From Clostridia bacterium (GTDB taxonomy: Bacteria > Bacillota > Clostridia > Oscillospirales > CAG-272), in the NCBI GenBank assembly GCA_017522125.1, contig JAFXAC010000059.1, positions 1 through 58,650 of the forward strand: 58,650 bases of DNA. The letters run 5' to 3'. The notes beneath the pieces are model-generated. The model did no database searches. It saw nothing but the letters and a program-made list of their open reading frames with translations, and was not told the DNA's origin. Shown here one piece after another: positions 1 through 58,650 of the stretch. The position numbers were made by a program, and so were the translations under genes. Every line of letters starts with the position of its first letter. Positions within the stretch are counted from its first letter, which is position 1.

Positions 1-61
1 CTTAACTTTCACTTTGCACTTTGCACTCTGCACTTTATTTGCCGTAAGGCAAATATTTCAC
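1..61 (-). repeat. Truncated GTGAAAT-word / mini-hairpin array (reverse orientation) downstream of the PAP2 gene
   Basis: The minus strand reads GTGAAATATTTGCC-ttac-GGCAAAT, then AAAGTGC/AGAGTGC/AAAGTGC/AAAGTGA 7-mers and GTTAAG at the window edge. The TGA of the first word (58-60) is the PAP2 stop codon. The grammar matches the arrays at 30.5, 51.7, 51.9 and 58.4 kb. Confidence 0.7.
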
Positions 62-639
62 CCAACGAGGTCGGAGCTGCCCGAAAACAGCCTTGGATAT
101 TTTCTCGCCACTGCGTTTACGATAAAGTAGGCGGCTACGGCGTAAAGAACGCCGAGGAGCGAGCCTATGAGCACGTCCGTAAAATAATGGACGTAGAGAT
201 AAAGCCTTGAAAACGCTATCAGCGCCGCCAGCGCGAGCGCCGCCGCGCCCCATTTTTTGTTAAAGAGGAAAACGCCCATAGCCCCCTCAAACGCGGCAAG
301 CGAATGCCCCGACGGGAACGACGCGTCGTGCGTCGACACAAGCGGCTCGCGCACGGCGATAAGCGCCGCGTAAAGCTCGTTTTCATACGGTCTTACGCGC
401 CCGACGAGTGGCTTTAAGCCGAGATTCACGGTGAGAAGCCCGATAACGAGCGCAACGCCTATGACCGCGCCCATTTTGCGCGTCCGCTTAAAGCACAAGA
501 ACACGGCGGCAAGCACTATCCAAAACCAGCCCGCGTCGCACAGGTGCGTCACAAACGTCAAAAATCCGTCAAGAAAGCCACATCGTATGCTTTGAATGCC
601 ATTCAGTATGGCATAGTCAAACTCATAAATTGCGTTCAT
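58..639 (-). CDS. PAP2-family membrane phosphatase (undecaprenyl-diphosphate / lipid phosphatase-like)
   Basis: ORF 58..666. PAP2 motifs KPLVGRVRP, PSGHS and SRLYLYVHYFTDV, plus several TM segments. I moved the start to the ATG at 639: it has a GGAGGAGGAAG RBS and an ATGA overlap with the upstream GT stop. Confidence 0.8.
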   Translation of the reverse strand: MNAIYEFDYAILNGIQSIRCGFLDGFLTFVTHLCDAGWFWIVLAAVFLCFKRTRKMGAVIGVALVIGLLTVNLGLKPLVGRVRPYENELYAALIAVREPLVSTHDASFPSGHSLAAFEGAMGVFLFNKKWGAAALALAALIAFSRLYLYVHYFTDVLIGSLLGVLYAVAAYFIVNAVARKYPRLFSGSSDLVG

Positions 640-1721
640 TTCTTCCTCCTCGGTGCAAACACCCACTCCCTTTGTATGCGGAAGTTGATAAAATAAAGCA
701 CCGTGTCGACTGCCATCTTAAGCAGAGTTGCCAGCGCGGGAGCCTCCACGCCAAACGTGTCCGAAAGAAGTCTTACCGAGCCTGCCGAAATAAGCATCAC
801 GGGTATCGCCAGAGCGTAGTATTTAAGGCAGGTGCGAGCCACCGACTCGCCCGACTTGAACACCGCCTTGCGATTCAGCGTAAAATTAGTTACCGAGGAC
901 ACCGCGCGCGCGATAGCCGTGGGGATAAGCACGGGTAGCACGGGCAGCACGGGGGACAAAAACCTTTTGAGAAGATAGAACAAAAGCAGGTCCACCACCG
1001 TGGATATGCCCGAGCTGCAAACAAACTTCAGTATAAGCGAATAAATTCTTATAGAATCTATCACGGGGCGGAAATGCGAGGTCTGATTCTCATCGATATA
1101 GACCGTTTCTATCTTTTGCTCAAGCCACGAAACGCCAAGGCGCTTCATTTCAAGGAGCATATTCGTTTCGTATTCGTACCTGTCGCCGTCGACCTCGCAA
1201 AGCTCACCGAGATATCTTTCGGGGATCGCGCGAAGCCCCGTTTGCGTGTCGGAAATTTTGAGTCCGCAAAGCAGTAAAAACACCGTAGAGGTTATTTTAT
1301 TGCCCATTCGGCTTTTCGCGGGGACGTGCTCAAGGTCAAAATCGCGCACGCCAAGCACGGGTGCGTCCCTCTCGACCATAAGGCGCGAGCAAGCCGCGAT
1401 ATCCGACGCGCGATGCTGTGCGTCACCGTCGGCGGTAACGACACCCGCGCGGTCGGGGCGGTTGGCGCGGAAATATTCAAACGCCGTTTTCAGCGCCGCG
1501 CCCTTGCCGCGATTGACCTCGTGCTCCAGCAGAGTTACCGCAGGATGCTCCTTGGGATCGGGGAAAAACGCCCTTTTTTCGGGCGATGAGCCGTCGTTTA
1601 TCACTATTATATCGTCAAAGCCCTCCGCTTCCAGCTCGCCGACTATTCGGCACAGCTTTTCGTCGGGCTGATATGACGGTATGACAAGCGTAACGCGTTG
1701 TTTAAAGCTCTTTTCTGTCAT
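636..1721 (-). CDS. Family-2 glycosyltransferase fused to a C-terminal GtrA-like membrane domain
   Basis: N-terminus VTLVIPSYQPDEKL...INDGS...DGDAQH is typical of GT2 polyprenol-phosphate glycosyltransferases. The C-terminal ~120 aa form 4 TM helices with the GtrA-like pattern (VVDLLLFYLL...FTLNRKAVF). Confidence 0.8.
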   Translation of the reverse strand: MTEKSFKQRVTLVIPSYQPDEKLCRIVGELEAEGFDDIIVINDGSSPEKRAFFPDPKEHPAVTLLEHEVNRGKGAALKTAFEYFRANRPDRAGVVTADGDAQHRASDIAACSRLMVERDAPVLGVRDFDLEHVPAKSRMGNKITSTVFLLLCGLKISDTQTGLRAIPERYLGELCEVDGDRYEYETNMLLEMKRLGVSWLEQKIETVYIDENQTSHFRPVIDSIRIYSLILKFVCSSGISTVVDLLLFYLLKRFLSPVLPVLPVLIPTAIARAVSSVTNFTLNRKAVFKSGESVARTCLKYYALAIPVMLISAGSVRLLSDTFGVEAPALATLLKMAVDTVLYFINFRIQREWVFAPRRKK

Positions 1722-3516: not shown

Positions 3517-5427
3517 TTATGCAACGGTCGTTTCGGGAGCTACGGGAGCCTCGGGAGCCTCGGGAGCTACGGGAGCTTCGGGAGCTACGGGAGCTTCAGG
3601 AGCTACGGGGGCTTCGGGAGCTACGGGAGCTACGGGCTTGCGGTGATCGTCGCGATCGTCATCGTGATCGTCGCGGTCATCATCGCGGTCATCGTCGTGA
3701 TCGTCATCGTCGAAATCCTCGTCGTGATCGTCATCGTCATCGTCGAAATCCTCGTCGTCATCGTCGTCGTGATCGTCGCGGTCAGCCTCGGGAGCTTTAT
3801 CAGCATCGGGCTTGTTGTCCTCAGCCTCGGTTCTCTCGGCAAGGATAGCCGCGCTTACGGCGTCAACTACGTACTTATACTCCGTATCAGCGGTTTCAAG
3901 CTCGACCTCGTATACCCAAGTCTCGCCCTTATGCTCAAGCTCGCAATCCTTTTCGATAACCTGCTCGGCACTAAGACCTGCGGCGGTGATGGCGGCGTTT
4001 ATAGCTGCCTCCTCGCCTATAAGGTTTTCGGGAAGCGCGGGAGCGGGGTGCTTTTCGTCCTCGTCCTTGTCATCATCGTGATCGTCGCGATCATCATCGC
4101 GATCGTCGTCATCGTCGTCGAAATCCTTGTCGTCGTGATCGTCGCGATCATCATCCTTGTCGTCGTCAGCCTCAACTCTGCTGTCGATAACTGCCGCACT
4201 CGTAGCGTCGATGCGGTATTCGTACTCGTTTGCCTCTACCTCGAACTCGATCTCGTAGAACCAAACGCCGCCCTTGCACTCAAGGTCGCATTCGATCTCG
4301 CCTGCCTGACTGGAGGAGAATCCGGCGGCGGCAAGCGCGGCGTTAACTGCTGCTTCCTTACCGATAAGGTTTTCGGGGCGCTCGACCTTTGCGGGCTTCT
4401 CGCCCTCGGGGCGCTCGACCTTATGGTCATCATCGTCATCGTCCTCGTCGTCAGCCTCGACCTTGCTCTTGAGGATCTCGCCCGTTGATGCGTCGATCTT
4501 ATATTCGTACTCGTTAGAGCCCGACTTGAACTCGACCTCGTATATCATTGCGCCCTTCTTATAATCAAGCTCGACCTCAACGTCCGTAGCCTGCTCGGCG
4601 GTAAGACCTGCCGCGCTGAGCGCGATGGCAACAACGGCGTCCTTGCCGATATAAGCGGAATCGCTTGCGCTTCCGCTGCCCGTTACGTCGTCGGGAGTCG
4701 TTCCCGTTGCGTCAAGCAGGAGTGCAAGCTCATTAACGGTAAGAGCCTTAAGCTCGTCAAAGGTGTGTGCGCCGCCGCGGGTAACAAGCTCGCAAATGAG
4801 TCTTGCCTTGCCCTGCGACATCTGATTTTCCTTTGCAAGAGCCTTTACGGCGTCGTCGACCTCGTCGGTGATTATCTGCGTCATAACGGCGGCTTCAATG
4901 CTTTCAGCCTTCAAAAGCTCGGTAACGCTGTCGGTGAGGTGCTGACGGAGTGCCTCGCCGTCGCCCTTGGTGTCAACGGTGATAAGAACGGAGTTCGCAT
5001 CAGCGCTGATGTATCCTGCCTTCAGCATCTCGCCGATGATGGCGGAAACTGCGGTGTCAACGTCAACGTCCTTAAGCTCGAGTCCCTCGAGTATACGGGT
5101 GCCGTCGTCGTTGGTGGCAACTGCCTTTTTAACGGTATCGTTTTTACCGATGGAAAGCTCGATGCCGGGGTTTACGTCGATGGAAACCACCGAGGTGATG
5201 GTATCCGAACCCGTCTGCATACCTATAACGGCGGTAAGAACCATAACGAGCACCAGAGCCGCAGCTATTGCAGATGCCCATTTTGCGCTTGAAAATCTCT
5301 TTTTCATTGTAAGTACCTTTCCCTTTCTCTCAACAGAACCACAAGCGGAAAGCACCTTTTCGTAATTATTAGGTGTCACAGCCTCTATATCGGCGGACAG
5401 CTTTTTCTCAATTTCGTTGTTTCTCAT
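3517..5427 (-). CDS. Anti-sigma factor: single TM segment, three extracytoplasmic PepSY-like modules, Asp/His-rich linkers
   Basis: It overlaps the ECF sigma stop by 1 nt (TGATG). TM segment WASAIAAALVLVMVLTAVIG. Three repeats of ~IGKxAAxxxAxxxAGxxxxQ...YExEF...xEYEYxIDAxSxxI (PepSY-like), separated by DDDxDDHDD runs. C-terminal (APE/APV)n tail. Confidence 0.7.
   Translation of the reverse strand: MRNNEIEKKLSADIEAVTPNNYEKVLSACGSVERKGKVLTMKKRFSSAKWASAIAAALVLVMVLTAVIGMQTGSDTITSVVSIDVNPGIELSIGKNDTVKKAVATNDDGTRILEGLELKDVDVDTAVSAIIGEMLKAGYISADANSVLITVDTKGDGEALRQHLTDSVTELLKAESIEAAVMTQIITDEVDDAVKALAKENQMSQGKARLICELVTRGGAHTFDELKALTVNELALLLDATGTTPDDVTGSGSASDSAYIGKDAVVAIALSAAGLTAEQATDVEVELDYKKGAMIYEVEFKSGSNEYEYKIDASTGEILKSKVEADDEDDDDDDHKVERPEGEKPAKVERPENLIGKEAAVNAALAAAGFSSSQAGEIECDLECKGGVWFYEIEFEVEANEYEYRIDATSAAVIDSRVEADDDKDDDRDDHDDKDFDDDDDDRDDDRDDHDDDKDEDEKHPAPALPENLIGEEAAINAAITAAGLSAEQVIEKDCELEHKGETWVYEVELETADTEYKYVVDAVSAAILAERTEAEDNKPDADKAPEADRDDHDDDDDEDFDDDDDDHDEDFDDDDHDDDRDDDRDDHDDDRDDHRKPVAPVAPEAPVAPEAPVAPEAPVAPEAPEAPVAPETTVA
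3532..3639 (-). repeat. About 12 tandem 9-bp units (GGGAGCTWC) encoding the (PEA/PVA)n C-terminal tail
   Basis: Read directly: cgggagcta/cgggagcct/cgggagctt units, head to tail, inside the 3' end of the anti-sigma CDS. Confidence 0.85.
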
Positions 5428-5993
5428 CAGTCTTCTCCCTGTAATCTGTTTCTGAGTTTTTTCATCGCCCTGCTGTATTTTGAAAGTACCGTGGGCAGCG
5501 GCATTCCCATTACCTCGGCTATCTGCCTGTGCTTCATATCGGAAAGCGCGTGAAGGGTAACTATCTGTCTTTCCTCGTCGGAAAGAGCCGTCATAGCCTC
5601 CCTTAGCACTATACCGTCAAGCAGTCGCTCACCCTCAGCCGCGCTGTCGGCGTGACGCTCCCAATCCTCCTCGTTTTCGAGAAGCCTTGCAGTCTTACGC
5701 AAGCGGTGCAGGCAGAGGTTGCGCGTGATGGTCAGTATCCACGCCATCGGCTTTCCCTGCGGTTGGTACCTATCCGCTTCGGAAAAGACCTTGACGAAGG
5801 CGTCCTGCATCACGTCCTCGGCATCGTGAGAATTTTTAAGTATGGAAAGTGCGAAGCCGTAGACCGAAACTCTGCAAGTGTCGTATATCACGGCAAGTGC
5901 ATCGTTCTCCCCACTTGCGAGCCGCAAAAGCGCGTCCTCAAGCACGTGGACCTTATCGTCATCAGGCTTTTTAGCTGATGTCTTGTTCTTCAT
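5427..5993 (-). CDS. ECF-type RNA polymerase sigma-70 family factor
   Basis: About 188 aa. Region 2 (DAEDVMQDAFVKVF, YQPQGKPMAWILTITRN) and a region 4 HTH (LSDMKHRQIAEVMGMPLPTVLSKYSRAMKKLR). Translationally coupled to the downstream anti-sigma gene. Confidence 0.85.
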   Translation of the reverse strand: MKNKTSAKKPDDDKVHVLEDALLRLASGENDALAVIYDTCRVSVYGFALSILKNSHDAEDVMQDAFVKVFSEADRYQPQGKPMAWILTITRNLCLHRLRKTARLLENEEDWERHADSAAEGERLLDGIVLREAMTALSDEERQIVTLHALSDMKHRQIAEVMGMPLPTVLSKYSRAMKKLRNRLQGED

Positions 5994-20175: not shown

Positions 20176-20582
20176 AAAACAGAAGCCGTATGCGTGATGT
20201 CCTTAACGGACAAATCACGCATCGAGATAATCCCTAACGGGATTTTCGATATGTTGCTAGCGCAACTCGATATGCCTACGGCTCGATATGTTTGCTCCGC
20301 AAACGAGGGATTTATCTCATATCGAATTGGCGCGAAGCGACAATATATCGAGCTTGAACGAAGTGAAAGCATATCGAGTCAACGAAGTTGACATATCGAC
20401 AGAAAGAAAAAACAGAGCAAGAATAGAAGGTTTTATATCCTTTTATCCTTGCTCTTTTCTGCTTGTATAAGGGTTTGGGCTTAGCCCATTTGCGTTTGAC
20501 CCGACAAACGCGATACTCGCACTTAGCGACATTTTTAAATTCTCCGCTAAGAGTATCACCCGTAAGGGCTTCTGTTTTTTAG
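20172..20582. repeat. Composite intergenic element bracketed by a 16-bp perfect inverted repeat (CTAAAAAACAGAAGCC / GGCTTCTGTTTTTTAG)
   Basis: Left arm 20172-20187 overlaps the LCP stop codon. Right arm 20567-20582 ends 4 nt before the esterase stop. The interior holds the TCGATAT/ATATCGA word array (20222-20399) and a hairpin-dense segment (20401-20566). Confidence 0.8.
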
Positions 20583-29897: not shown

Positions 29898-30464
29898 ATG
29901 AGTGAAAGAAAAAGCTATAAAATGAATATCGCGGGCTGTGAGCGCGCGCTCCCCCTTTGTCCCCTCAACGACGAGCTGCAGATCGGCGCGTTCGTCATTT
30001 TTGGCGACCCCGAGCTGACCACCGCCTGCTCACGCGCGCTTCTTGACAAAGCGCCCGAATACGATTACCTCATCTCCGCCGAGGCGAAGGGCATTCCGCT
30101 CGTTCACGAGATGGCACGCCTTGCGGGAAATCAGAAATACTTCCTCGCACGCAAAGCGCCGAAGCTCTATATGACGGGCGTTTTCGAGGTCAAGGTTCGC
30201 TCCATCACCACCGACAAACAGCAGACGCTTTACCTTGACACCGCCGACGCGGAGCTGATGCGCGGCAAGCGTATCCTCATCGTCGACGACGTTATCTCCA
30301 CGGGAGAGTCGCTTCGCGCCGTTGAGGAGCTTGTCCGTCAGGCGGGCGGCATTTGCTGCGGCAGAATGGCAATTCTCGCCGAGGGCGAGGCGGCAGACCG
30401 CGACGACCTTATCTATCTTGAAAAGCTCCCGCTTTTCGATAAGGACGGAAAGGCGTTGAATTGA
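29898..30464 (+). CDS. Type I phosphoribosyltransferase family protein (purine PRT-like)
   Basis: PRPP-binding motif RILIVDDVISTGESL. 188 aa. Confidence 0.7.
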   Translation: MSERKSYKMNIAGCERALPLCPLNDELQIGAFVIFGDPELTTACSRALLDKAPEYDYLISAEAKGIPLVHEMARLAGNQKYFLARKAPKLYMTGVFEVKVRSITTDKQQTLYLDTADAELMRGKRILIVDDVISTGESLRAVEELVRQAGGICCGRMAILAEGEAADRDDLIYLEKLPLFDKDGKALN

Positions 30465-30590
30465 AAACACGACAGTGTTTTCAATTCAATGAAATCCGAC
30501 TCCGTCGGGTGAAATACGGCTTCGCCGTGTGAAATATTTCGCTACGCGAAATGTGAAATATTTGCCTTGCGGCAAACGTTAAGGAAAAAA
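30462..30590 (+). repeat. GTGAAAT-word / mini-hairpin array (forward orientation)
   Basis: TGAAAACAC-gaca-GTGTTTTCA. Then words at 30489, 30509, 30529 and 30553 (spacing 20/20/24 nt) alternating with the hairpins CCGAC-tcc-GTCGG, CGGC-ttc-GCCG, TCGC-tac-GCGA and TTTGCC-ttgc-GGCAAA. Ends in GTTAAGGAAAAAA. Confidence 0.85.
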
Positions 30591-30624
30591 ATCGGTCAAA
30601 GCGAGGCTTTGACCGATTTTGTTT
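30591..30624 (+). terminator. Intrinsic terminator closing the array
   Basis: ATCGGTCAAAGC-gag-GCTTTGACCGAT followed by TTTTGTTTT. Confidence 0.75.
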
Positions 30625-30652
30625 TATAAAAAAGAGCAGACCACCTTTAGCG

Positions 30653-44416: not shown

Positions 44417-45277
44417 TTATGAATCCGCGCCGCCGCGATAAACGACGAGCGCTTCTTCAGCGAATATCTCGTTTCCTTCGGCAAGCTCCAAATGTGTAAA
44501 TTCAACGTCCGTTCCGCAGTAAGTCACCACCGCAAGCTCGGGGCAGGAGGTAAATGCGTTTTTGCGTACCTGCAAAAGCGTTTTCGGAACGACTGCCTCC
44601 TCCATAAGCACACAGCTTTGAAAAGCGCTCTCACCGATAAGCACAAGGCTGTCGCCGAGGTCAAGGTGAATGAGCTTGTTGCAGGCGGCAAACGCGCCCT
44701 TGCCGACCGTTAAAACGGAGCTGAGGTCGACCGCCTTCATCTGGCGCGTGGCAAACGCGCCGCCTGCGATATGCCTTACGCCGTCGGGCAGCTTGACGCT
44801 CGGTGACGTGCCGTTGTACCTTATAAGCACGCCATCACCCACTATCGCAAACTCGTCCGTCAGCGAGGCAAGCCACGGCGTGCCGTCAAAGGCGTTAAGA
44901 CCTACAGACCAGACCGCCTTGCCAAGCTCCACGTCCGAGAGGGCGCTACAGCCTAAAAACGCACCGTCACCGATAATTTCAAGGCTGTCGGGGAGCTTTA
45001 CCGAGGTGATATCCTCCCTGCCCTCGAAAAGCGAGGCGGCAAGCTCCACGACGGGCATTCCGTCAAGCTCACGGGGCAGCTCTATATTCCCCGCGCCGTT
45101 ATGGTCTATTATTATAACGCTTCCATCATCGTATTTTCGGTAGCCGATATCCGTGCCGTAGCGTTGGTCGCTGATGAGTACGCGCGATTTGAGCGAAAAC
45201 TCCTCGCGCGGGGCTTCACAGCCCGAAAAAAGCAAAATCGCGGCAAAAATTATAGCAAAAAGCTTGATCCTTTTCAT
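44417..45277 (-). CDS. BspA-type leucine-rich-repeat lipoprotein
   Basis: Lipobox LLFSGC. Repeated ...I.. AF..C..L..V.L units (LRR_5 type). Confidence 0.75.
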   Translation of the reverse strand: MKRIKLFAIIFAAILLFSGCEAPREEFSLKSRVLISDQRYGTDIGYRKYDDGSVIIIDHNGAGNIELPRELDGMPVVELAASLFEGREDITSVKLPDSLEIIGDGAFLGCSALSDVELGKAVWSVGLNAFDGTPWLASLTDEFAIVGDGVLIRYNGTSPSVKLPDGVRHIAGGAFATRQMKAVDLSSVLTVGKGAFAACNKLIHLDLGDSLVLIGESAFQSCVLMEEAVVPKTLLQVRKNAFTSCPELAVVTYCGTDVEFTHLELAEGNEIFAEEALVVYRGGADS

Positions 45278-45289
45278 TATCGCACCTCC

Positions 45290-46570
45290 TTACGGTCTTT
45301 CGCCGTGCGCGATATTCGCGCCCGTCAGGTGCGTGTTGCCGAGGGATACGTTGATTTTTGCAAAATCTTCAGCATCGCCCGCGTACTTCACCGAGGACAA
45401 AAGCAAGCAACCGCTAAACGCGCTGTCGCCTATCTCCTCAAGCGAGTCGGGAAGATATAGAGTGCGAAGTCGACTGCACGACATAAACGCACCGTCACCG
45501 ATAAGGCTGACGTCTGCGGAAATAAGCACGCTTTCAAGCGCGCGGCAGGCGTAAAAGGCGTTAGTGCCTATCACCGTCGCCTTGCCCGATATCTCAACGC
45601 TTACTATTTCCTTGTTTTCCGCAAACGCGTCCGAAACGTACTTAACGCCGCGCGGGAGCTTGACGCTACCGCCGCCGCCGTTATATTTTATAAGCACGCC
45701 GTCACCGACGGTGGCAAACTCGTCCGTCAGCGAGGCAAGCCAAGGAGAGCCGTAAAACGCAGAGCTGCCCACCCTCTCAAGAGTGGAGTCCTCGTCCACG
45801 CTCGAAAGCGCGGTACAGCCGTAAAAGGCACGGTCACCGACCGAGGAAATTTCACTAAGGTCTACGCTAACGAGCGACGAACAGTTGTAAAATGCCTCGT
45901 CGGGTATCTCGCAAAGCCCGCCAAGCTCTACTCTGTAAAGCGAGGAGCAGCCGTAAAACGCCTGCGGACCTATAACAACGCCGTCGGGCAGCTCCACCTC
46001 GCAAAGGCTTGAAGCGCCGTAAAAGGCACTCGCGCCTATCTCTTTAAGAGTTTCGGGAAGCTCGAGCTTGCAAAGCGCGGGACACGCCCAGAACGCCGAA
46101 TCGAATATCTTAACAAGTCCCGTTGCTCCATTTACGCTCGAAAGGAGCGAGCAACCGTAAAATGCAAAAAATCCTATGCTCTCAAGCGCCGCGGTCGCGT
46201 CTACGCGAACAAGCTCGGTACAGCCGTAAAACGCGTTTTCACCGATGGTGCGCAGATTTGCGCCAAGCCTTGCGTACACAAGATAGCCGTCAAACGAAAA
46301 CGCCTCGTTTGCGACGGCGGTGACGGGACGAGAGTCGATCTCGTCGGGAATGATAAGCTCGCGCGTACCGTCGCGCCGCCCCGTTACCGTTACCTCGCCG
46401 TTATCGTACACGTCGTAAAAAAGCCCCTCGGGGGAAACGAGCCCCGCCGAAACGACCTTTGCCTCGGTCGTGTCCTCGCCCTCGCTTGGCGCGGGCATAC
46501 AGCCGACGAGCGAAAGCGCAAGCAACGCCGAAAGCATCAATATAATGAACTTTGTTTTTTTATGCTTCAT
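45290..46570 (-). CDS. BspA-type leucine-rich-repeat lipoprotein (longer paralogue)
   Basis: Lipobox LSLVGC. About 12 LRR_5 units (AFYGC..L..V.L). Shares the SPWLASLTDEFA.VGDGVLI.YNG block with the adjacent gene. Confidence 0.75.
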   Translation of the reverse strand: MKHKKTKFIILMLSALLALSLVGCMPAPSEGEDTTEAKVVSAGLVSPEGLFYDVYDNGEVTVTGRRDGTRELIIPDEIDSRPVTAVANEAFSFDGYLVYARLGANLRTIGENAFYGCTELVRVDATAALESIGFFAFYGCSLLSSVNGATGLVKIFDSAFWACPALCKLELPETLKEIGASAFYGASSLCEVELPDGVVIGPQAFYGCSSLYRVELGGLCEIPDEAFYNCSSLVSVDLSEISSVGDRAFYGCTALSSVDEDSTLERVGSSAFYGSPWLASLTDEFATVGDGVLIKYNGGGGSVKLPRGVKYVSDAFAENKEIVSVEISGKATVIGTNAFYACRALESVLISADVSLIGDGAFMSCSRLRTLYLPDSLEEIGDSAFSGCLLLSSVKYAGDAEDFAKINVSLGNTHLTGANIAHGERP

Positions 46571-49800: not shown

Positions 49801-50010
49801 ACAAAAAAGCGCAAGCTCGGCTTGCGCGTCGATATAAATCCCTTGCGGGATTTTCGATATGCGCCTACGGCGCACGTCGATATAAATCTGCGCAAGCTGA
49901 TTTATATCATATCGAGTTCGACCGAAGGGAGAACATATCGAATTCGAGCGAAGCGAGAATATATCGAGCCGAGCGCGAGCGAGGCATATCGACAAACCTT
50001 CTCGCTTGCG
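49801..50010. repeat. TCGATAT/ATATCGA-word / mini-hairpin array
   Basis: TCGATAT at 49829, 49854 and 49877, then the reverse-complement word ATATCGA at 49909, 49935, 49961 and 49986 (26/26/25-nt spacing). Words are separated by short imperfect palindromes, most with a central CGAAG. Bracketed by hairpins at both ends. Confidence 0.85.
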
Positions 50011-51149: not shown

Positions 51150-51566
51150 TTATCCTATCGCGCCGCCGCCCTCAACTCCCGTTGTAGCGGGCAAGGTCGC
51201 CGTCGCGGCGGCAGTTCCAAGACCGAAGCTCACCGCGATGGCGGCGTTCACCTCGTTCATCAGTCCCTCGTCAAGATGCCCCATCTTTTCCTTGAGGCGG
51301 CGCTTGTCAAGCGTCCTTATCTGCTCAAGCAGTATCACAGAGTCGCGCGAGAGTCCTGCCTTTTCGGCGTATATGTCGATATGTGTGGGCAGGCGCGTTT
51401 TTCCCATTCTTGATGTAATCGCGGCGGCAATGACCGTTGGGCTGTATTTGTTGCCAACGTCGTTTTGTATTATCAGCACGGGGCGAAGTCCCCCCTGCTC
51501 CGAGCCGACAACGGGCGAGAGGTCGGCGTAAAATATATCTCCTCTTTTTATGCTTTGCATATTCAT
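51150..51566 (-). CDS. mazF: MazF/PemK (EndoA-like) type II toxin endoribonuclease, no adjacent antitoxin ORF
   Basis: [47 protein letters not shown]...LPTHIDI...[13 protein letters not shown] is the canonical MazF/EndoA core. Start at the ATG at 51566 (AAGGAG RBS). An extra Gly/Ala/Thr-rich ~22-aa C-terminal tail is present. Confidence 0.85.
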
Positions 51567-51680
51567 TTTCTGCTCCTTGCGGGTTTTGCTTACATTCATA
51601 TTTTTACCGCCCGCCGCCCCTCTTAAACAGGCGCACGGAATTTTGCGGTAAGGAATTTTTACCCTACGTTAGCAGTATAT

Positions 51681-51808
51681 GTGAAAACACCGTTGGTGTT
51701 TTCACGGTGAAATCCGACTTCGTCGGGTGAAATCCACCTGCGGTGGATGAAATATTTCGCTACGCGAAATGTGAAATATTTGCCTTGCGGCAAATATTAA
51801 GGAAAAAA
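51681..51808 (+). repeat. GTGAAAT-word / mini-hairpin array (forward), colinear with the 30462-30590 copy
   Basis: GTGAAAACAC-cgtt-GTGTTTTCAC. Words at 51707, 51727, 51747 and 51771 (spacing 20/20/24) with hairpins CCGAC-ttc-GTCGG, CCACC-tgc-GGTGG, TCGC-tac-GCGA and TTTGCC-ttgc-GGCAAA. Ends in ATTAAGGAAAAAA. Confidence 0.85.
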
Positions 51809-51846
51809 GCGTAAGAAACGCACGCGTTTCTTACGCTTTTGTTTTT
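51809..51846. terminator. Bidirectional terminator shared by the two convergent arrays
   Basis: GCGTAAGAAACG-cacg-CGTTTCTTACGC, flanked by AAAAAA and TTTTGTTTTT. Confidence 0.8.
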
Positions 51847-51873
51847 ATAATTGCTTTTTGCGTAGCAAAAAGC

Positions 51874-51977
51874 TACCTTCATATTTTGCGAAGCAAAATA
51901 TTTCACATTTGCCCTTGGGCAAATATTTCACACGGCGAAGCCGTATTTCACCCGTTCCGACGGAACGGATTTCACTG
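51874..51977 (-). repeat. GTGAAAT-word / mini-hairpin array (reverse orientation) starting at the stop codon of the polyferredoxin-thioredoxin gene
   Basis: ATTTCAC at 51900, 51925, 51945 and 51969 on the plus strand. Hairpins TTGC-gaa-GCAA, TTTGCCC-ttg-GGCAAA, CGGC-gaa-GCCG and CCGTTCCGA-CGGAACGG. The TGA at 51974-51972 is the gene's stop. Confidence 0.85.
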
Positions 51978-53546
51978 AAAACGCAAAGCGTTTTCTATCG
52001 CTTCGTTCAGCTCGTCGGCGGTGACCGAGCCCTGCTGAGTAAAGGTGATAACGCCCTCTGCGTTGATAACGACCGTCATCGGGTAGCTTCCCATTCCGCC
52101 GAGGATATCGTAGTAGGAAAGTCCGTTTATCTGGCGGTCCTGACAGAATTTTATCGCGTAGTCGGCGTATTTCGTCTGCGCCGCGCTGAGGTCTGCCCCG
52201 TTATTTATGAAGTCCTGAACTATCTCGCCCTCGTAAATGTACGAATGCACGGCAATTATCTGCACGTCGTCGCCGTAGTGGAACGCCGCCTCGTTAAAGT
52301 GCGGAAGCTCGGCAAGACACGGGCCGCAGGACGTGTACCAGAAATTGAGAACGGTCACCTTGCCGCGCAGATCCTTGATATTTAACACCTCGCCCGCCGC
52401 CGTGCCGTTTGAGGCGTAGGCGGTAAGGTCCTGCTCGTAGCAAAGACTTCCGACGGTATTGCCGTACGCCACCTCGCTGTCCGTGGGGGGCGCGGGCGGC
52501 TCTACGGTCGGCACCTTGTCGATGAAGTTGTAGTAGATGAGCGCGGCGGCAAGGAGTGCCGTAGCAAGCACGCCGCCGACTGCCTTGACTATCCTCATAC
52601 GCTTTTGGCGCTTGGCTTCAACGGCTTCCTTTTGCTCAGCCGTTGACTCGTCGCTGTCGAGAACGGCAACGTCGCTCGGCGCAAGCACGAAGCGCGAGCC
52701 CTTCCACTGGATAGCCTTGGTTGCGCAGTACTCCATACATTCGCCGCAGGAGATGCACTCGCGGTCACCGACCTTTCTTACGTCGAGCTTGCATTTGCTA
52801 ACGCAAAGTCCGCAATGCGTGCATTTCGACTCTTCAAGCTTGATACCGAACAGGCAGAACTTGTTGAAAAGGCCGTATATCGCGCCCATTGGGCAGAAAA
52901 AGCGGCAGAAAAAGCGGTAAATAAATACCGAAGCTACCACAAAGCCGACGAGAAGCACGAATTTCCAAGTGAAAAGCGGGCCGAGCATTCCAAGCTGAGA
53001 TTCGTTTGCGCTGTTGGAGAGCAGACCTACCGCGCCCTCAAGCGTGCCCGCGGGGCAGATGTACTTGCAAAAGCCGGGAAGCGGGAAATTCCGTCCCGCA
53101 AAAAGGAGAGGAATTGCGATAACGAACACCGCAAGGATTATGTATTTAAGGTACGAAAGCACGCGCGTCACGCGGTTCTTTTTCAGCTTCGGCGTTTTTA
53201 TTTTATAAAGAAGGTCCTGAATGAAGCCGAAGGGGCAAAGGAAGGAGCATATCCAGCGTCCGAACATCAGTCCGTAGAGCATAATTATGCCGAAAATGTA
53301 AAAAGGAAGCGTTTTTCCGCTGCTTGCAAGCGCGTTTTGGAGCGCGCCAAGCGGGCAGGCGGCGGACGCGCCGGGGCAGGAATAGCAGTTTATGCCGGGG
53401 GCGCACATTGCCTTAAGGTCGCCCTGATATATCTTTCCGTTGCCAAATCCCTTGAGATTTGCGTTAAAGAGCAGAGCCGCGTAAAGCTGAACGTATCTGC
53501 GCTTCGTCGGGCGGTGGTCATAGAGCCATTTAGTAAGCTTATTCAT
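51972..53546 (-). CDS. Membrane polyferredoxin (NapH/MauN-like, 2x[4Fe-4S]) fused via a TM helix to a TlpA/ResA-like thioredoxin domain
   Basis: CPxG-containing TM helices (CPFG, CPAG, CPMG). Ferredoxin motifs CTHCGLCVSKC and CISCGECMEYC. An additional TM segment (VGGVLATALLAAALIYY). C-terminal redoxin fold with VTVLNFWYTSCGPC. Confidence 0.75.
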   Translation of the reverse strand: MNKLTKWLYDHRPTKRRYVQLYAALLFNANLKGFGNGKIYQGDLKAMCAPGINCYSCPGASAACPLGALQNALASSGKTLPFYIFGIIMLYGLMFGRWICSFLCPFGFIQDLLYKIKTPKLKKNRVTRVLSYLKYIILAVFVIAIPLLFAGRNFPLPGFCKYICPAGTLEGAVGLLSNSANESQLGMLGPLFTWKFVLLVGFVVASVFIYRFFCRFFCPMGAIYGLFNKFCLFGIKLEESKCTHCGLCVSKCKLDVRKVGDRECISCGECMEYCATKAIQWKGSRFVLAPSDVAVLDSDESTAEQKEAVEAKRQKRMRIVKAVGGVLATALLAAALIYYNFIDKVPTVEPPAPPTDSEVAYGNTVGSLCYEQDLTAYASNGTAAGEVLNIKDLRGKVTVLNFWYTSCGPCLAELPHFNEAAFHYGDDVQIIAVHSYIYEGEIVQDFINNGADLSAAQTKYADYAIKFCQDRQINGLSYYDILGGMGSYPMTVVINAEGVITFTQQGSVTADELNEAIENALRFQ

Positions 53547-56691: not shown

Positions 56692-58422
56692 ATGACGGGA
56701 AAGGACAGGATGGTCGCCGACCTCAAGGCACAGCACGAGGCAAACCGAAGAGAATACGAGGACAAGCAAAGAAAGGCGAGGATAGACGCAAAGGAGCCGA
56801 TAGTAGACCCTGCGCTTTTTACGCATCTTGAAAACAACCGCCGTGCCGCGCCCCCACAACAGCAACAGCCTCAGCCGCAAGCACCGAGCGTGCCGAGAAA
56901 AGCTCCCGCCGCACCGCGCACAGCGCCGCAGGCGCAGAGCGCACGCCCCGCCCACAAAAAAGCTCCGCGCCGCGAGGGTGCGCCCATAAGCCCCGAGGCG
57001 GCTCGCGCCGCCGCCGCACGCCGCGCCGCCGAGGAGGAAAGGCGCAAGCGCGAAAAGGCTGAAAAAGAAAAGAAAAAGGAAGAAAAAAAGAAGTCCGTGC
57101 TTGCCATAAGGCACGCGGTAATGGGATATTTCGGCATTTCCATATGCATTCTGCTCATCATTTGCGGCATTGCCGCCAGCATTTTTCTGCTCGGGCTTAC
57201 CTCGCACGACGAGGCAGAGACGTTGCCCGACAAGCTGATCTATTATGCGGGCAAGGACAAGACCTCTCTGCCGTATTCATCGGTATATATTGGCGGAAAA
57301 TACTTCGTTAATATGACGGATATCGCCGCACGCGCAGGTCTTACCATGAGTGGCGACAGCGAGAGTATGGTATTCTCCGCGCCGCCGAATGAAAAGGCGA
57401 TATTCACCGTCGGCGCGGGCCACGCCCTCGTAAACGGCGTGAGCGTCAATATGGGCGCGCCGTGCTTTTTGCGCGACGGCTCGCTGTGGGTGAGCGCCGA
57501 TTTTGCCGACAGATATATCAGCGGTGTCAGCGTCACCCTCTCGGACGACAAAACCACGCTGACGGTGGAGATAGGCGAGGCTTGCTCGTTCCTTCTTAAA
57601 AACGAAGCTCCGCTTGACACGCCCACCGTGGACGACCTTCCGCCCTCGGTGGTGATACTGCCAAGCGACACGCCGCGCTACGAATTCACCAACGACCTTT
57701 CGTCCTATTACAAGTACATGGACCCCGCCGACCGCGACGCGTTTTTACTGCTTATCAACCCGTCGCGCCCCTTTGACGCGACCTACGAGCCGCCCGACCT
57801 TACGAGCGTTCTGAACGTCAAAAAGGGCAAAAACTACACGATGTCGCTCTACGCGGAAAAGGCACTTGAGGCACTTTTCGTAGAGATGTACGCCGCGGGC
57901 TACACCGACGTGGTGGTAACTATGGCGTATCGCTCCTACGAGGCACAGGAAAAGCAGTTCAACACATACGTTTACAACGAAAGATATTACTACCGCACGA
58001 ATTTTGAAGCAACGGGAAAATGGTTCAGCGACGCGGCGTACAAGGCCCTCGGCGAGAGCTATATCAAGGAAAAATATATCTCAAAGGGAAAGACCACGCT
58101 GACAAAGGAGGACGCCGAGCGCGTCGTCAGATCGTATTCCGCCGCCCCGGGCACGGGTGACCACCAGACGGGATTTTCCTGCGATATGCACAATCTGTCC
58201 TCTACGTCGGTGAAGTTTGAGAAGGAGGAGGCATACGCGTGGCTTCTTGAAAATGCGCACAAATTCGGCTTTATACAGCGTTATCCCAAGGACAAGGAAA
58301 AGATAACGGGAATGAGCTTTGAGCCGTATCATTGGCGCTTCGTAGGTCAGTACCACGCGGCAGTTATGCGTGAAAACGGACTCTGCCTTGAGGAGTACGT
58401 AGCACTGTTAGAAAAGGAGTGA
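56692..58422 (+). CDS. Membrane-anchored M15B (VanY-type) D,D-carboxypeptidase with a copper-amine-oxidase-N-like stalk domain
   Basis: Lys/Glu/Pro/Ala-rich cytoplasmic N-terminus and one TM segment. Stalk domain (YIGGKYFVNMTDIA...). C-terminal VanY core (SAAPGTGDHQTGFSCDM...FEPYHWRFVG). Confidence 0.75.
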   Translation: MTGKDRMVADLKAQHEANRREYEDKQRKARIDAKEPIVDPALFTHLENNRRAAPPQQQQPQPQAPSVPRKAPAAPRTAPQAQSARPAHKKAPRREGAPISPEAARAAAARRAAEEERRKREKAEKEKKKEEKKKSVLAIRHAVMGYFGISICILLIICGIAASIFLLGLTSHDEAETLPDKLIYYAGKDKTSLPYSSVYIGGKYFVNMTDIAARAGLTMSGDSESMVFSAPPNEKAIFTVGAGHALVNGVSVNMGAPCFLRDGSLWVSADFADRYISGVSVTLSDDKTTLTVEIGEACSFLLKNEAPLDTPTVDDLPPSVVILPSDTPRYEFTNDLSSYYKYMDPADRDAFLLLINPSRPFDATYEPPDLTSVLNVKKGKNYTMSLYAEKALEALFVEMYAAGYTDVVVTMAYRSYEAQEKQFNTYVYNERYYYRTNFEATGKWFSDAAYKALGESYIKEKYISKGKTTLTKEDAERVVRSYSAAPGTGDHQTGFSCDMHNLSSTSVKFEKEEAYAWLLENAHKFGFIQRYPKDKEKITGMSFEPYHWRFVGQYHAAVMRENGLCLEEYVALLEKE

Positions 58423-58495
58423 AATCCACCTTCGGTGGGTGAAATACGGCTTCGCCGTGTGAAATATTTTGCTTCGCAAAATGTTAAGGAAAAAA
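58419..58495 (+). repeat. GTGAAAT-word / mini-hairpin array (forward) starting at the stop codon of the M15 gene
   Basis: Words at 58419, 58439 and 58459 (20/20 spacing) with hairpins CCACC-ttc-GGTGG, CGGC-ttc-GCCG and TTGC-ttc-GCAA. Ends in GTTAAGGAAAAAA. The TGA at 58420-58422 is the stop codon. Confidence 0.85.
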
Positions 58496-58525
58496 GCGGA
58501 AGAAACGTGAGTTTCTTCCGCTTTT
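58496..58525. terminator. Bidirectional terminator
   Basis: GCGGAAGAAAC-gtga-GTTTCTTCCGC followed by TTTT, preceded by AAAAAA. Confidence 0.8.
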
Positions 58526-58650
58526 AATTTTCTGCAAATAATTCGCTTATCGAAACGCCGAAAAGCTCGGCAAGCTTGGGAATTAGAGTGATGTCAGGTG
58601 AGTTTGCCGAGGTTTCCCACTTGGAAACCGCTTGACACGTTACGCCGAGC
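58524..58650 (-). CDS. XRE-family HTH regulator, C-terminal fragment (5' end outside the window)
   Basis: The reverse translation reads ...LGVTCQAVSKWETSANSPDITLIPKLAELFGVSISELFAEN*, the recognition helix and C-terminal part of a Cro/C1-type HTH. Confidence 0.6.
   Translation of the reverse strand, partial: LGVTCQAVSKWETSANSPDITLIPKLAELFGVSISELFAEN

Follow-up and report, generated by a model that had tools for sequence, protein, structure and literature searches.

In a 58,650-nucleotide stretch of DNA from an uncultured gut bacterium of the class Clostridia (Oscillospirales lineage CAG-272) (GenBank assembly GCA_017522125.1, contig JAFXAC010000059.1, positions 1 to 58,650; hereafter the window), the TGA stop codons of four genes are at the same time part of the first unit of an array of short hairpins and seven-nucleotide words. 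The feature is the 5' junction of a gene and a hairpin-repeat cassette of the Gut-1 RNA type (Rfam RF01706). We propose, with a probability of about 0.5, that this is a 3'-untranslated-region (3'-UTR) cassette resembling the repetitive extragenic palindromes (REPs) and bacterial interspersed mosaic elements (BIMEs) of Enterobacteria, and that it turns over by word-to-word recombination around a fixed stop anchor.

Three of the four genes terminate NNG-TGA-AAT, with TGAAAT being the first word of a word-plus-hairpin array: the M15/VanY-type peptidase gene (GAG-TGA-AAT, TGA at 58420-58422, in word 1 of array E), the polyferredoxin-thioredoxin/redoxin gene, hereafter FerTrx (CAG-TGA-AAT, TGA at 51974-51972, in word 1 of array D), and the PAP2 phosphatase gene (GGG-TGA-AAT, TGA at 60-58, in the single word of unit A). 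The fourth, an adenine phosphoribosyltransferase-like gene (PRT), ends AAT-TGA-AAACAC, and its TGA (30462-30464) opens the palindromic first unit TGAAAACAC...GTGTTTTCA of array B, a 15-bp palindromic hairpin (TTGAATTGAAAACAC/GTGTTTTCAATTCAA) that spans the stop and contains no TGAAAT word. A first-pass annotation, made from the letters and a list of open reading frames (ORFs), had given these four stops and their codons, and all are correct, as is its placing of the PRT stop inside the first hairpin unit and its count of four arrays in five that share a TGA with their first unit; the fifth (array C, + strand) has no same-strand gene in front of it in the window ORF list. Its array behind PAP2 has to be trimmed: the stop does lie inside GTGAAAT, but only one word and one hairpin follow before AAAGTGC heptamers begin. 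The true start of this PAP2 gene is probably the ATG at 639 rather than the start of the ORF at 666; look-up of the ATG-639 version returned matches and that of the GTG-start version none.

The arrays themselves are not new to databases. The window holds 23 copies of GTGAAAT where 6.7 +/- 2.5 are expected, and none of 100 shuffles reached 23. With a curated gathering score of 50 bits, the RF01706 covariance model scores array B at 66.9, D at 65.6, and E and C at 55.9 bits each. By score and structure, these arrays are members of the Gut-1 motif; unit A, which is cut by the window edge, has no Rfam match. Weinberg et al. (2010; PMC2864571) described Gut-1 from human-gut metagenomes as at least three short hairpins with GUGAAAU as the spacer, and three consecutive hairpins with single-stranded (G)UGAAAU between them are present here in the sequence, in the Rfam alignments and in the minimum-free-energy folds, where each word is paired except for its GAA. 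The predicted fold of array E reaches -52.4 kcal/mol (z -7.0), with hairpin 1 beginning 2 nt past the stop, and that of array B -78.7 kcal/mol (z -8.9). Importantly, the RF01706 consensus begins CAaUGAAAU, which means that the UGA of word 1 belongs to the family model itself.

Where we depart from the published picture is in the setting. Gut-1 was considered certainly RNA and probably not cis-regulatory, and it is treated as a free-standing small RNA (sRNA) gene by both that paper (PMC2864571) and Rfam; our literature search returned nothing on Gut-1 beyond this one source. Sequence and structure are the same here, but the arrays are of variable length and occupy 3' UTRs from stop codon to terminator: four of the five copies run from the stop of a same-strand gene to a terminator, which is not the layout of a free-standing sRNA. 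Other departures from the motif as published, described below, are a first unit that is palindromic, sister families of words, arrays in convergent pairs and alleles that turn over rapidly. Array C, for which no strong promoter was found, is the sole window copy that could be free-standing. As for transcription, one metatranscriptome contig covers 30339-30555 colinearly and joins the PRT end, the stop and array B; such RNA-run data are assembled contigs that may contain DNA, lack ends and strands, and have array depths inflated by repeats. The runs holding the locus are labelled gut metagenome.

The cassettes share a common plan (Table 1). Each opens either with a first word, (A)GTGAAAT, or with a palindromic first unit, (G)TGAAAAC...GTTTTCA(C); the middle consists of one to five units of a short hairpin (mostly with a triloop closed by C-G) plus a word; and the end is GTTAAGG or ATGAAGG (ATTAAGG in array C) followed by an intrinsic terminator. 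The 3' part of array D is ATGAAGG and then the TAGCTTTTTGC hairpin, and beyond the window unit A continues with AAAGTTAAGG, a hairpin and a terminator, as the full 3' region in L145-L150 reveals (L-numbers denote loci from other genomes; X1 and X3, below, are sequencing runs with near-identical strains). At least eight different hairpin stems occur in the window, and CCGAC, CCGTTCC, CCACC, ACGGC, ATTTCGC, ATTTGCC(C) and ATTTTGC are reused at different genes in a broadly similar order, which fits arrays that are deletion derivatives of a longer master element. The terminators, too, are homologous across loci: that of cassette E with those behind arrays C/D and behind the array in L135, and that of B with the VanY terminator in L137. 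Over 101 nt, array B matches array C at 89% identity (repeat family D5), and the homology of B, C and the L135 array starts at (G)TGAAAACAC, with unrelated sequence further upstream. Judged from these alignments, the repeated unit is TGA through terminator; since array C has no ORF in front, its TGA is intrinsic to the element and not to a gene. The arrays that open with TGAAAT (E, D and A) look like joins between the TGAAA of the first palindromic unit and the TGAAA of an internal word.

Table 1. Genes and array features of the window (positions on the forward strand; 3' end features follow their array)
Feature	Position	Strand	Basis or content
M15/VanY-type peptidase gene (576 aa)	56692..58422	+	ORF list; Pfam VanY 3e-26
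Array E (Gut-1)	58419..58489	+	GTGAAAT at 58419, 58439, 58459; sequence and Rfam RF01706
Array E hairpins		+	CCACC-TTC-GGTGG, ACGGC-TTC-GCCGT, ATTTTGC-TTC-GCAAAAT; closing GTTAAGG 58483-58489
Cassette E 3' end: A-tract, intrinsic terminator, T-tract	58490..58533	+	terminator scan 58492-58525
Polyferredoxin-thioredoxin/redoxin (FerTrx) gene (524 aa)	51972..53546	-	ORF list; Pfam Fer4 and Redoxin
Array D (Gut-1)	51850..51977	-	four words; hairpins CCGTTCC, ACGGC, ATTTGCCC, ATTTTGC
Array C	51682..51845 (array proper 51682-51800)	+	first unit GTGAAAACACC-GTTG-GTGTTTTCAC, four word-hairpin units, ATTAAGG, terminator
Adenine phosphoribosyltransferase-like (PRT) gene (188 aa)	29898..30464	+	ORF list; Pfam phosphoribosyltransferase
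Array B	30456..30625	+	hairpin 1 spanning stop, four word-hairpin units, GTTAAGG 30578-30584, terminator
PAP2 phosphatase gene	58..639 (ORF 58..666)	-	ORF list; Pfam PAP2
Unit A	1..61	-	GTGAAAT (61-55), hairpin ATTTGCC-TTAC-GGCAAAT, AAAGTGC heptamer run; cut by window edge

In the orthologues, the stop stays whilst the array changes. The C-termini of VanY orthologues of 43-88% identity agree with the window protein to within two residues; FerTrx ends ...ENALRFQ-stop against ...EEALAK/GK-stop in dozens of orthologues, and PRT ...DGKALN-stop against ...DGNPLD-stop or NGQPLA-stop, within one residue. The arrays therefore begin at the native stop. Behind VanY, the GAG-TGA-AAT and three units of the window correspond to GAG-TGA-AAACACC, with a first unit and four further units, in L135 (88% identity); to GAG-TGA-AGT, with GTGAAGT words all through, in L138 (88%); to GAG-TGA-A-GTGAAAACGC... 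in run X1 and to AAG-TGA-AAACGC..., one codon shorter, in run X3 (both strains about 99% identical); to CAG-TGA-AAACGC, a single hairpin and then the terminator, in L137 (55%); and to TGA followed by decayed last-unit remnants, TTTGCCTTYGGA...TGAAGG, in L136 and L139 (73%). Behind FerTrx, CAG-TGA-AAT and four units in the window become CAA-TGA-TAT and one unit in L140 (94%) and CAG-TGA-TAT... in run X1, and L137 (85%) has CAG-TGA and no array, yet the same TTAAGAAAAAAG terminator lead-in. Behind PRT, L141 (92%) reads AAT-TGA-AAT-CCGTTCC... and then ATGATAT words, and L142 (84%) ends GCT-TAA without an array and without a change in protein length. Orthologous arrays thus differ by whole units. 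The first-pass annotation had proposed to look among orthologues for altered C-termini and, where no array is present, for a TGAAAT that was there beforehand; the C-termini are unchanged within one or two residues, and array-less orthologues end TGA-AAG (GAG-TGA-AAG in L136), TGA-GCG, TGA-GCC or TAA, none of them TGAAAT.

Some further observations belong beside these junctions. The alternative words at orthologous sites, GTGAAGT (L138:3229-3320), GTGATAT (L140:2699-2940 and run X1 contigs at window 51972) and ATGATAT (L141:1765-1880), are uniform within each array, with hairpins partly in common. The last eight codons of FerTrx (window 51977-52000, - strand) read GAAAACGC-TTT-GCGTTTTC-AG-TGA, a hairpin within coding sequence; behind VanY in L137, the first-unit hairpin has the same stem. 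The last residues of the FerTrx protein (RFQ, against AK/GK in orthologues) may derive from the element. Gene order also varies with arrays at the breakpoints: VanY adjoins PemK in L135, and FerTrx adjoins PemK in the window and in L140 (L135:2261-2670 against window 51600-51980 and 58419-58535).

Might the arrays have grown in place, by tandem duplication from a TGAAAT or TGAAA already present past the stop, so that the overlap is a historical seed? Array-less L136, with its GAG-TGA-AAG, could be read as such a starting point, the pure AAAGTGC run behind PAP2 shows that slippage does occur, and 7 of the 20 TGA-ending window genes read TGA-AA, 4 of which carry arrays. Still, an array is made up of different hairpins instead of one hairpin in tandem, unrelated genes carry the same hairpins and even the same terminators, and copy C has no gene in front; moreover, the decayed remnants in L136 and L139 point to loss rather than to a primordial state, and other array-less orthologues end TGA-GCC or TAA. 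We therefore regard local growth as very unlikely.

Recombination between words around a fixed stop would accommodate these facts more readily. The cassette would be transcribed as the 3' UTR of the upstream gene, and its array would expand, contract, and swap units or whole word families when its 7-nt words recombine or slip against one another, bounded at its far end by the conserved terminator module. Since the 5'-most word and the stop overlap, each such event would regenerate an in-frame TGA at the same place, and selection would remove variants that alter the end of the protein; regeneration and selection together would keep the anchor stable whilst the array turns over fast. This mechanism, which we infer from the allelic series, would account for the constant TGA with variable arrays and for whole-unit differences among orthologous arrays, for the one-codon shift in X3, with which a crossover within AG-TGAAA fits, and for the rearrangements with arrays at their breakpoints (VanY/PemK in L135; FerTrx/PemK in the window and L140).

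Target-specific insertion at TGA stops, one of two explanations put forward by the first-pass annotation, is not needed here, considering that the TGA is constant in relatives of 55-99% identity whilst the array is swapped, shortened, changed or lost. In its enzyme-driven form, the cassettes would be non-autonomous mobile elements, such as REPs mobilised by RAYT, IS200/IS605-derived palindromes or miniature inverted-repeat transposable elements (MITEs), and a genome-encoded transposase would place them either at a TGA stop or where an existing hairpin has its 3' foot. The sharp left boundary, (G)TGAAA, at unrelated loci would be expected of such a process, as would the behaviour of the element in one other species, in which the start TAAATTATAG... 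lies behind three different genes (L073, L074, L086) with a TAA or TAG stop inside it. First words often follow a hairpin or terminator and are preceded by AG in 48% of cases, against 22% of internal words; the arrays are dense, with five in 58 kb; and several word families suggest several specificities. Against this, no terminal inverted repeats were seen, and arrays B, C, D and E are not flanked by target-site duplications; instead of repeating one sequence, the stems differ from each other through compensatory changes; and what distinguishes alleles is their internal units, not whether a fixed element is there. Of the 49 window proteins, 46 were searched for transposase, integrase and reverse transcriptase domains, and none was found in these ordinary housekeeping proteins (e.g. 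recA, fba and a class II tRNA synthetase), although the gene could sit elsewhere in the genome. On balance, we consider insertion distinctly unlikely.

A few other known classes were considered and rejected. The arrays are not clustered regularly interspaced short palindromic repeats (CRISPR), as the repeat is 7 nt and not 23-50, the "spacers" are 13-18-nt palindromes reused between arrays, and no cas domain was found in the window. They are not integron attC sites, given that GTTAAGG does not fit GTTRRRY, and they are not coding repeats. A MITE or other element derived from an insertion sequence was likewise set aside: unit number varies, and the (G)TGAAA left end and terminator right end are not inverted copies.

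How general is the overlap with the stop? A pattern scan of species-representative genomes yielded 118 loci with 118 non-identical hairpin arrays, mostly in metagenome-assembled genomes (MAGs) of gut Clostridia, Eubacteriales, Oscillospiraceae or Acutalibacteraceae, with a few hairpin-containing arrays on contigs of Akkermansia MAGs. The MAGs of array-bearing gut Clostridia and Eubacteriales come from animals as well as humans, and the range of Gut-1 is wider than the human gut only. Where an upstream ORF of 120 codons or more ends close by, as it does for 41 non-identical arrays (two window genes included), we tabulated the position of the stop relative to the first word, as the first-pass annotation had suggested, and found a spike at 0 and a gap at -1 to -19. 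The stop falls exactly on the first TGAAAT in 8 of the 41 (p < 1e-4 for eight at one given offset by chance), 1-19 nt upstream of it in none, and 20-38 nt upstream in 15, where typically one hairpin directly past the stop is followed by AG/GG-TGAAAT; in 16 it is further off (44-148 nt, in some cases with a full terminator in between), and in 2 it falls on a later word. The two window genes in the offset-0 set are confirmed by Pfam, and four of the other six are real by the same measure (RNase III, an MFS transporter, PcrA/UvrD and GH120), which makes six of eight verified genes; the remaining ORFs, L104 and L128, have no Pfam match and look spurious. A separate scan of metagenomes with the lineage-specific unit GTGAAATACGGCTTCGCCGTGTGAAAT returned 12 loci, spread over several lineages, a number that does not allow a census of the whole lineage.

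These counts speak to the trivial possibility that TGA-rich words simply end any ORF that reads into them, by chance or as an artefact of ORF calling. Arrays B, C and E do carry TGAs in all three frames, and two of the eight offset-0 ORFs are the spurious ones just mentioned. However, four window genes and four outside it are real, with domains that reach the C-terminus, and the agreement of gene ends with orthologues already contradicts such a reading. The first-pass annotation had judged the placement non-random, and this holds: four of four gene-adjacent arrays against one frame in three gives p = 0.012, with support also from orthologues and other genomes, and 6 of 8 ORFs that reach an array stop at word 1 (p = 0.02 against one in three; 0.0014 without two short ORFs). 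The gap at -1 to -19, for its part, cannot come from ORF calling, and we find an artefact hardly credible. The same annotation had noted successive TGAs in all three frames of array B and suggested, as one example, that these serve as back-up stops. The observation is right for B, as it is for C and E, but does not extend to array D, where the TGAs fall in frames 0, 0, 2 and 0; three-frame TGAs follow from the 20-nt spacing.

A more serious rival is that selection for function comes first, i.e. that the array must start at the stop, its action being coupled to translation termination. The terminating ribosome would melt hairpin 1 and thereby tune output, trigger or avoid ribosome rescue, or expose the word to a binding protein or RNase. 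This was the other explanation offered by the first-pass annotation, and part of it retains support: hairpin 1 of array E begins 2 nt past the stop, the offsets show nothing at -1 to -19 with eight at 0 and 15 with a hairpin directly past the stop, and the junction is kept in 55-99% relatives despite array change. A hairpin lies 0-3 nt past the stop in 21 of 50 array-adjacent ORFs (42%) against 124 of 1291 other long ORFs (10%; Fisher p = 6e-9), a 4-fold excess over a control set that contains spurious ORFs. There is also a precedent: down-regulation of translation by REPs that sit less than 16 nt from a stop (Liang, Rudd and Deutscher 2015, summarised in PMC12306157). As a general rule, however, the proposal fails: no gene lies upstream of copy C or of many arrays elsewhere, 16 of the 41 arrays lie 44-148 nt from the stop, orthologues that have lost the array appear viable, and window arrays of the second word family, TCGATAT, lie roughly 50-190 nt from stops. 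We think it possible but unlikely that selection of this kind is the primary cause.

That second word-plus-hairpin family was our only control for stop-free words, and a limited one. It comprises two pairs of arrays in the window (20215-20400 and 49825-49995), the word being TCGATAT on the + strand and turning to ATATCGA in the second half of each; the pairs are convergent, lie between convergent genes and are not on the stops, and they have no Rfam match at the gathering threshold. A census of six-letter words in the fetched loci returned almost only GTGAAAT arrays because the loci had been selected by GTGAAAT.

Recombination around the stop anchor, our preferred account, has its own difficulties. 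No recombination event was observed directly, and the allelic series could equally have arisen if an enzyme had inserted arrays independently, time after time; for homologous recombination, words of seven nucleotides are short substrates; and simple slippage does not account for words that are all alike in one array but of another kind in the next allele. This uniformity leaves room for a word-specific factor or enzyme. The makeup of the metatranscriptome contigs, with possible DNA and repeat-inflated depth, weakens the RNA evidence, and the spurious ORFs in the control set weaken the hairpin-at-stop comparison. Family-wide, most arrays are not flush with a stop and about half have no clear upstream ORF, and TGA is not enriched in array-adjacent genes (46% vs 42%): TAA and TAG genes carry arrays too, and in many cases a complete terminator precedes the array or there is no gene upstream at all. 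Overlap with the stop is lineage-enriched, not universal.

What could such a cassette do? REPs are known to stabilise upstream mRNA, and stacks of hairpins protect 3' ends. The likeness to REP/BIME is one of abundant, clustered extragenic palindromes between a stop and a terminator or convergent genes: five arrays and two convergent TCGATAT pairs in 58 kb, all intergenic, with arrays in dozens of MAGs. According to PMC12306157, many REP/BIME elements of Enterobacteria lie 1-20 nt from the end of the upstream ORF and affect translation, and in E. coli translation is lowered by REPs no more than 15 nt from a stop (Liang et al. 2015, as summarised there). In the window, the overlap with TGA places the start of hairpin 1 2-3 nt past the stop, inside the footprint of the terminating ribosome, and a ribosome terminating on word 1 would have to unwind it. 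By analogy, the function may be 3'-end protection, modulation of translation coupled to termination, or both. The arrays would thus work like REP/BIME without being members: those have a GTAG (or CGTC) head and near-identical stems, whereas here the head is GTGAAAT and the stems are diverse with compensatory changes. Unlike REP/BIME, the arrays also have hairpins of 13-18 nt, fixed 7-nt words as linkers, direct and not alternating orientation, and a stop inside the element; no RAYT (Y1 HUH transposase) gene was found among the same 46 of 49 window proteins.

Two further systems offer partial parallels. The BOX elements of streptococci, boxA-(boxB)n-boxC, are modular, intergenic and transcribed, with stable RNA structure; like them, the cassettes have a distinct first module, variable internal units and a distinct last module. 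However, their sequence is unrelated, their units are much shorter, a terminator is included and the 5' end is anchored on a stop. In compact bacterial genomes, intrinsic terminators can overlap stop codons, and here too RNA structure lies at or right past the stop and the last part of the cassette is a canonical A-tract, stem and T-tract; unlike such terminators, it carries one to five extra hairpins with conserved linker words, common to unrelated genes.

The Gut-1 motif and the proximity of REP/BIME elements to stops were known already; it is the stop anchoring of Gut-1 that appears to be new. To our knowledge, the stop within the first word, the stop-to-terminator cassette, the sister word families and the strain-level turnover round a fixed TGA are all described here for the first time. 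Perhaps Gut-1 and its sister families (GTGATAT, GTGAAGT, TCGATAT) even form a new class of portable gene-end cassettes, which a dedicated, word-guided mechanism would install and exchange, and whose position at the stop would couple termination to mRNA fate or to a factor specific for the word family; this is speculative, and we would not bet on it. Whatever the mechanism, an orphan motif that has been without context or function since 2010 now has a concrete and testable 3'-UTR setting. There are practical implications, too: arrays break short-read assemblies (Logan contigs L133, L134 and L148-L150 end within or just past them), they mark rearrangement breakpoints, and they can mislead gene callers, as with a 251-aa PemK call in L140 that reads through an array.

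Of the neighbouring sequences, array C is convergent with array D and lies directly upstream of, and divergent from, a PemK/MazF-like endoribonuclease gene (window 51150-51599, - strand; array side 51600-51800), an arrangement that recurs in L135 and L140. No antitoxin gene adjoins this gene, and the flank ...cagtatatG/TGAAA at its border with array C is kept in three genomes (window, L135 and L140). Behind PAP2, the AAAGTGC run of four to five copies, without hairpins (window 1-40, - strand; L145:2100-2140), sits between the single Gut-1 unit and the closing AAAGTTAAGG, and the window copy differs by one base from six other assemblies. Repeats of other kinds occur within genes: an anti-sigma RsgI-like/PepSY gene (3517-5427, - strand), which adjoins an ECF-type sigma factor gene (5427-5993), has long tandem coding repeats of 9 and 12 nt (GGGAGCYWC; acidic GAT/GAC-rich runs), and two adjacent BspA-type LRR_5 genes (44417-46570, - strand) have internal 66-nt periodic repeats and an 84-nt segment in common at 85% identity.

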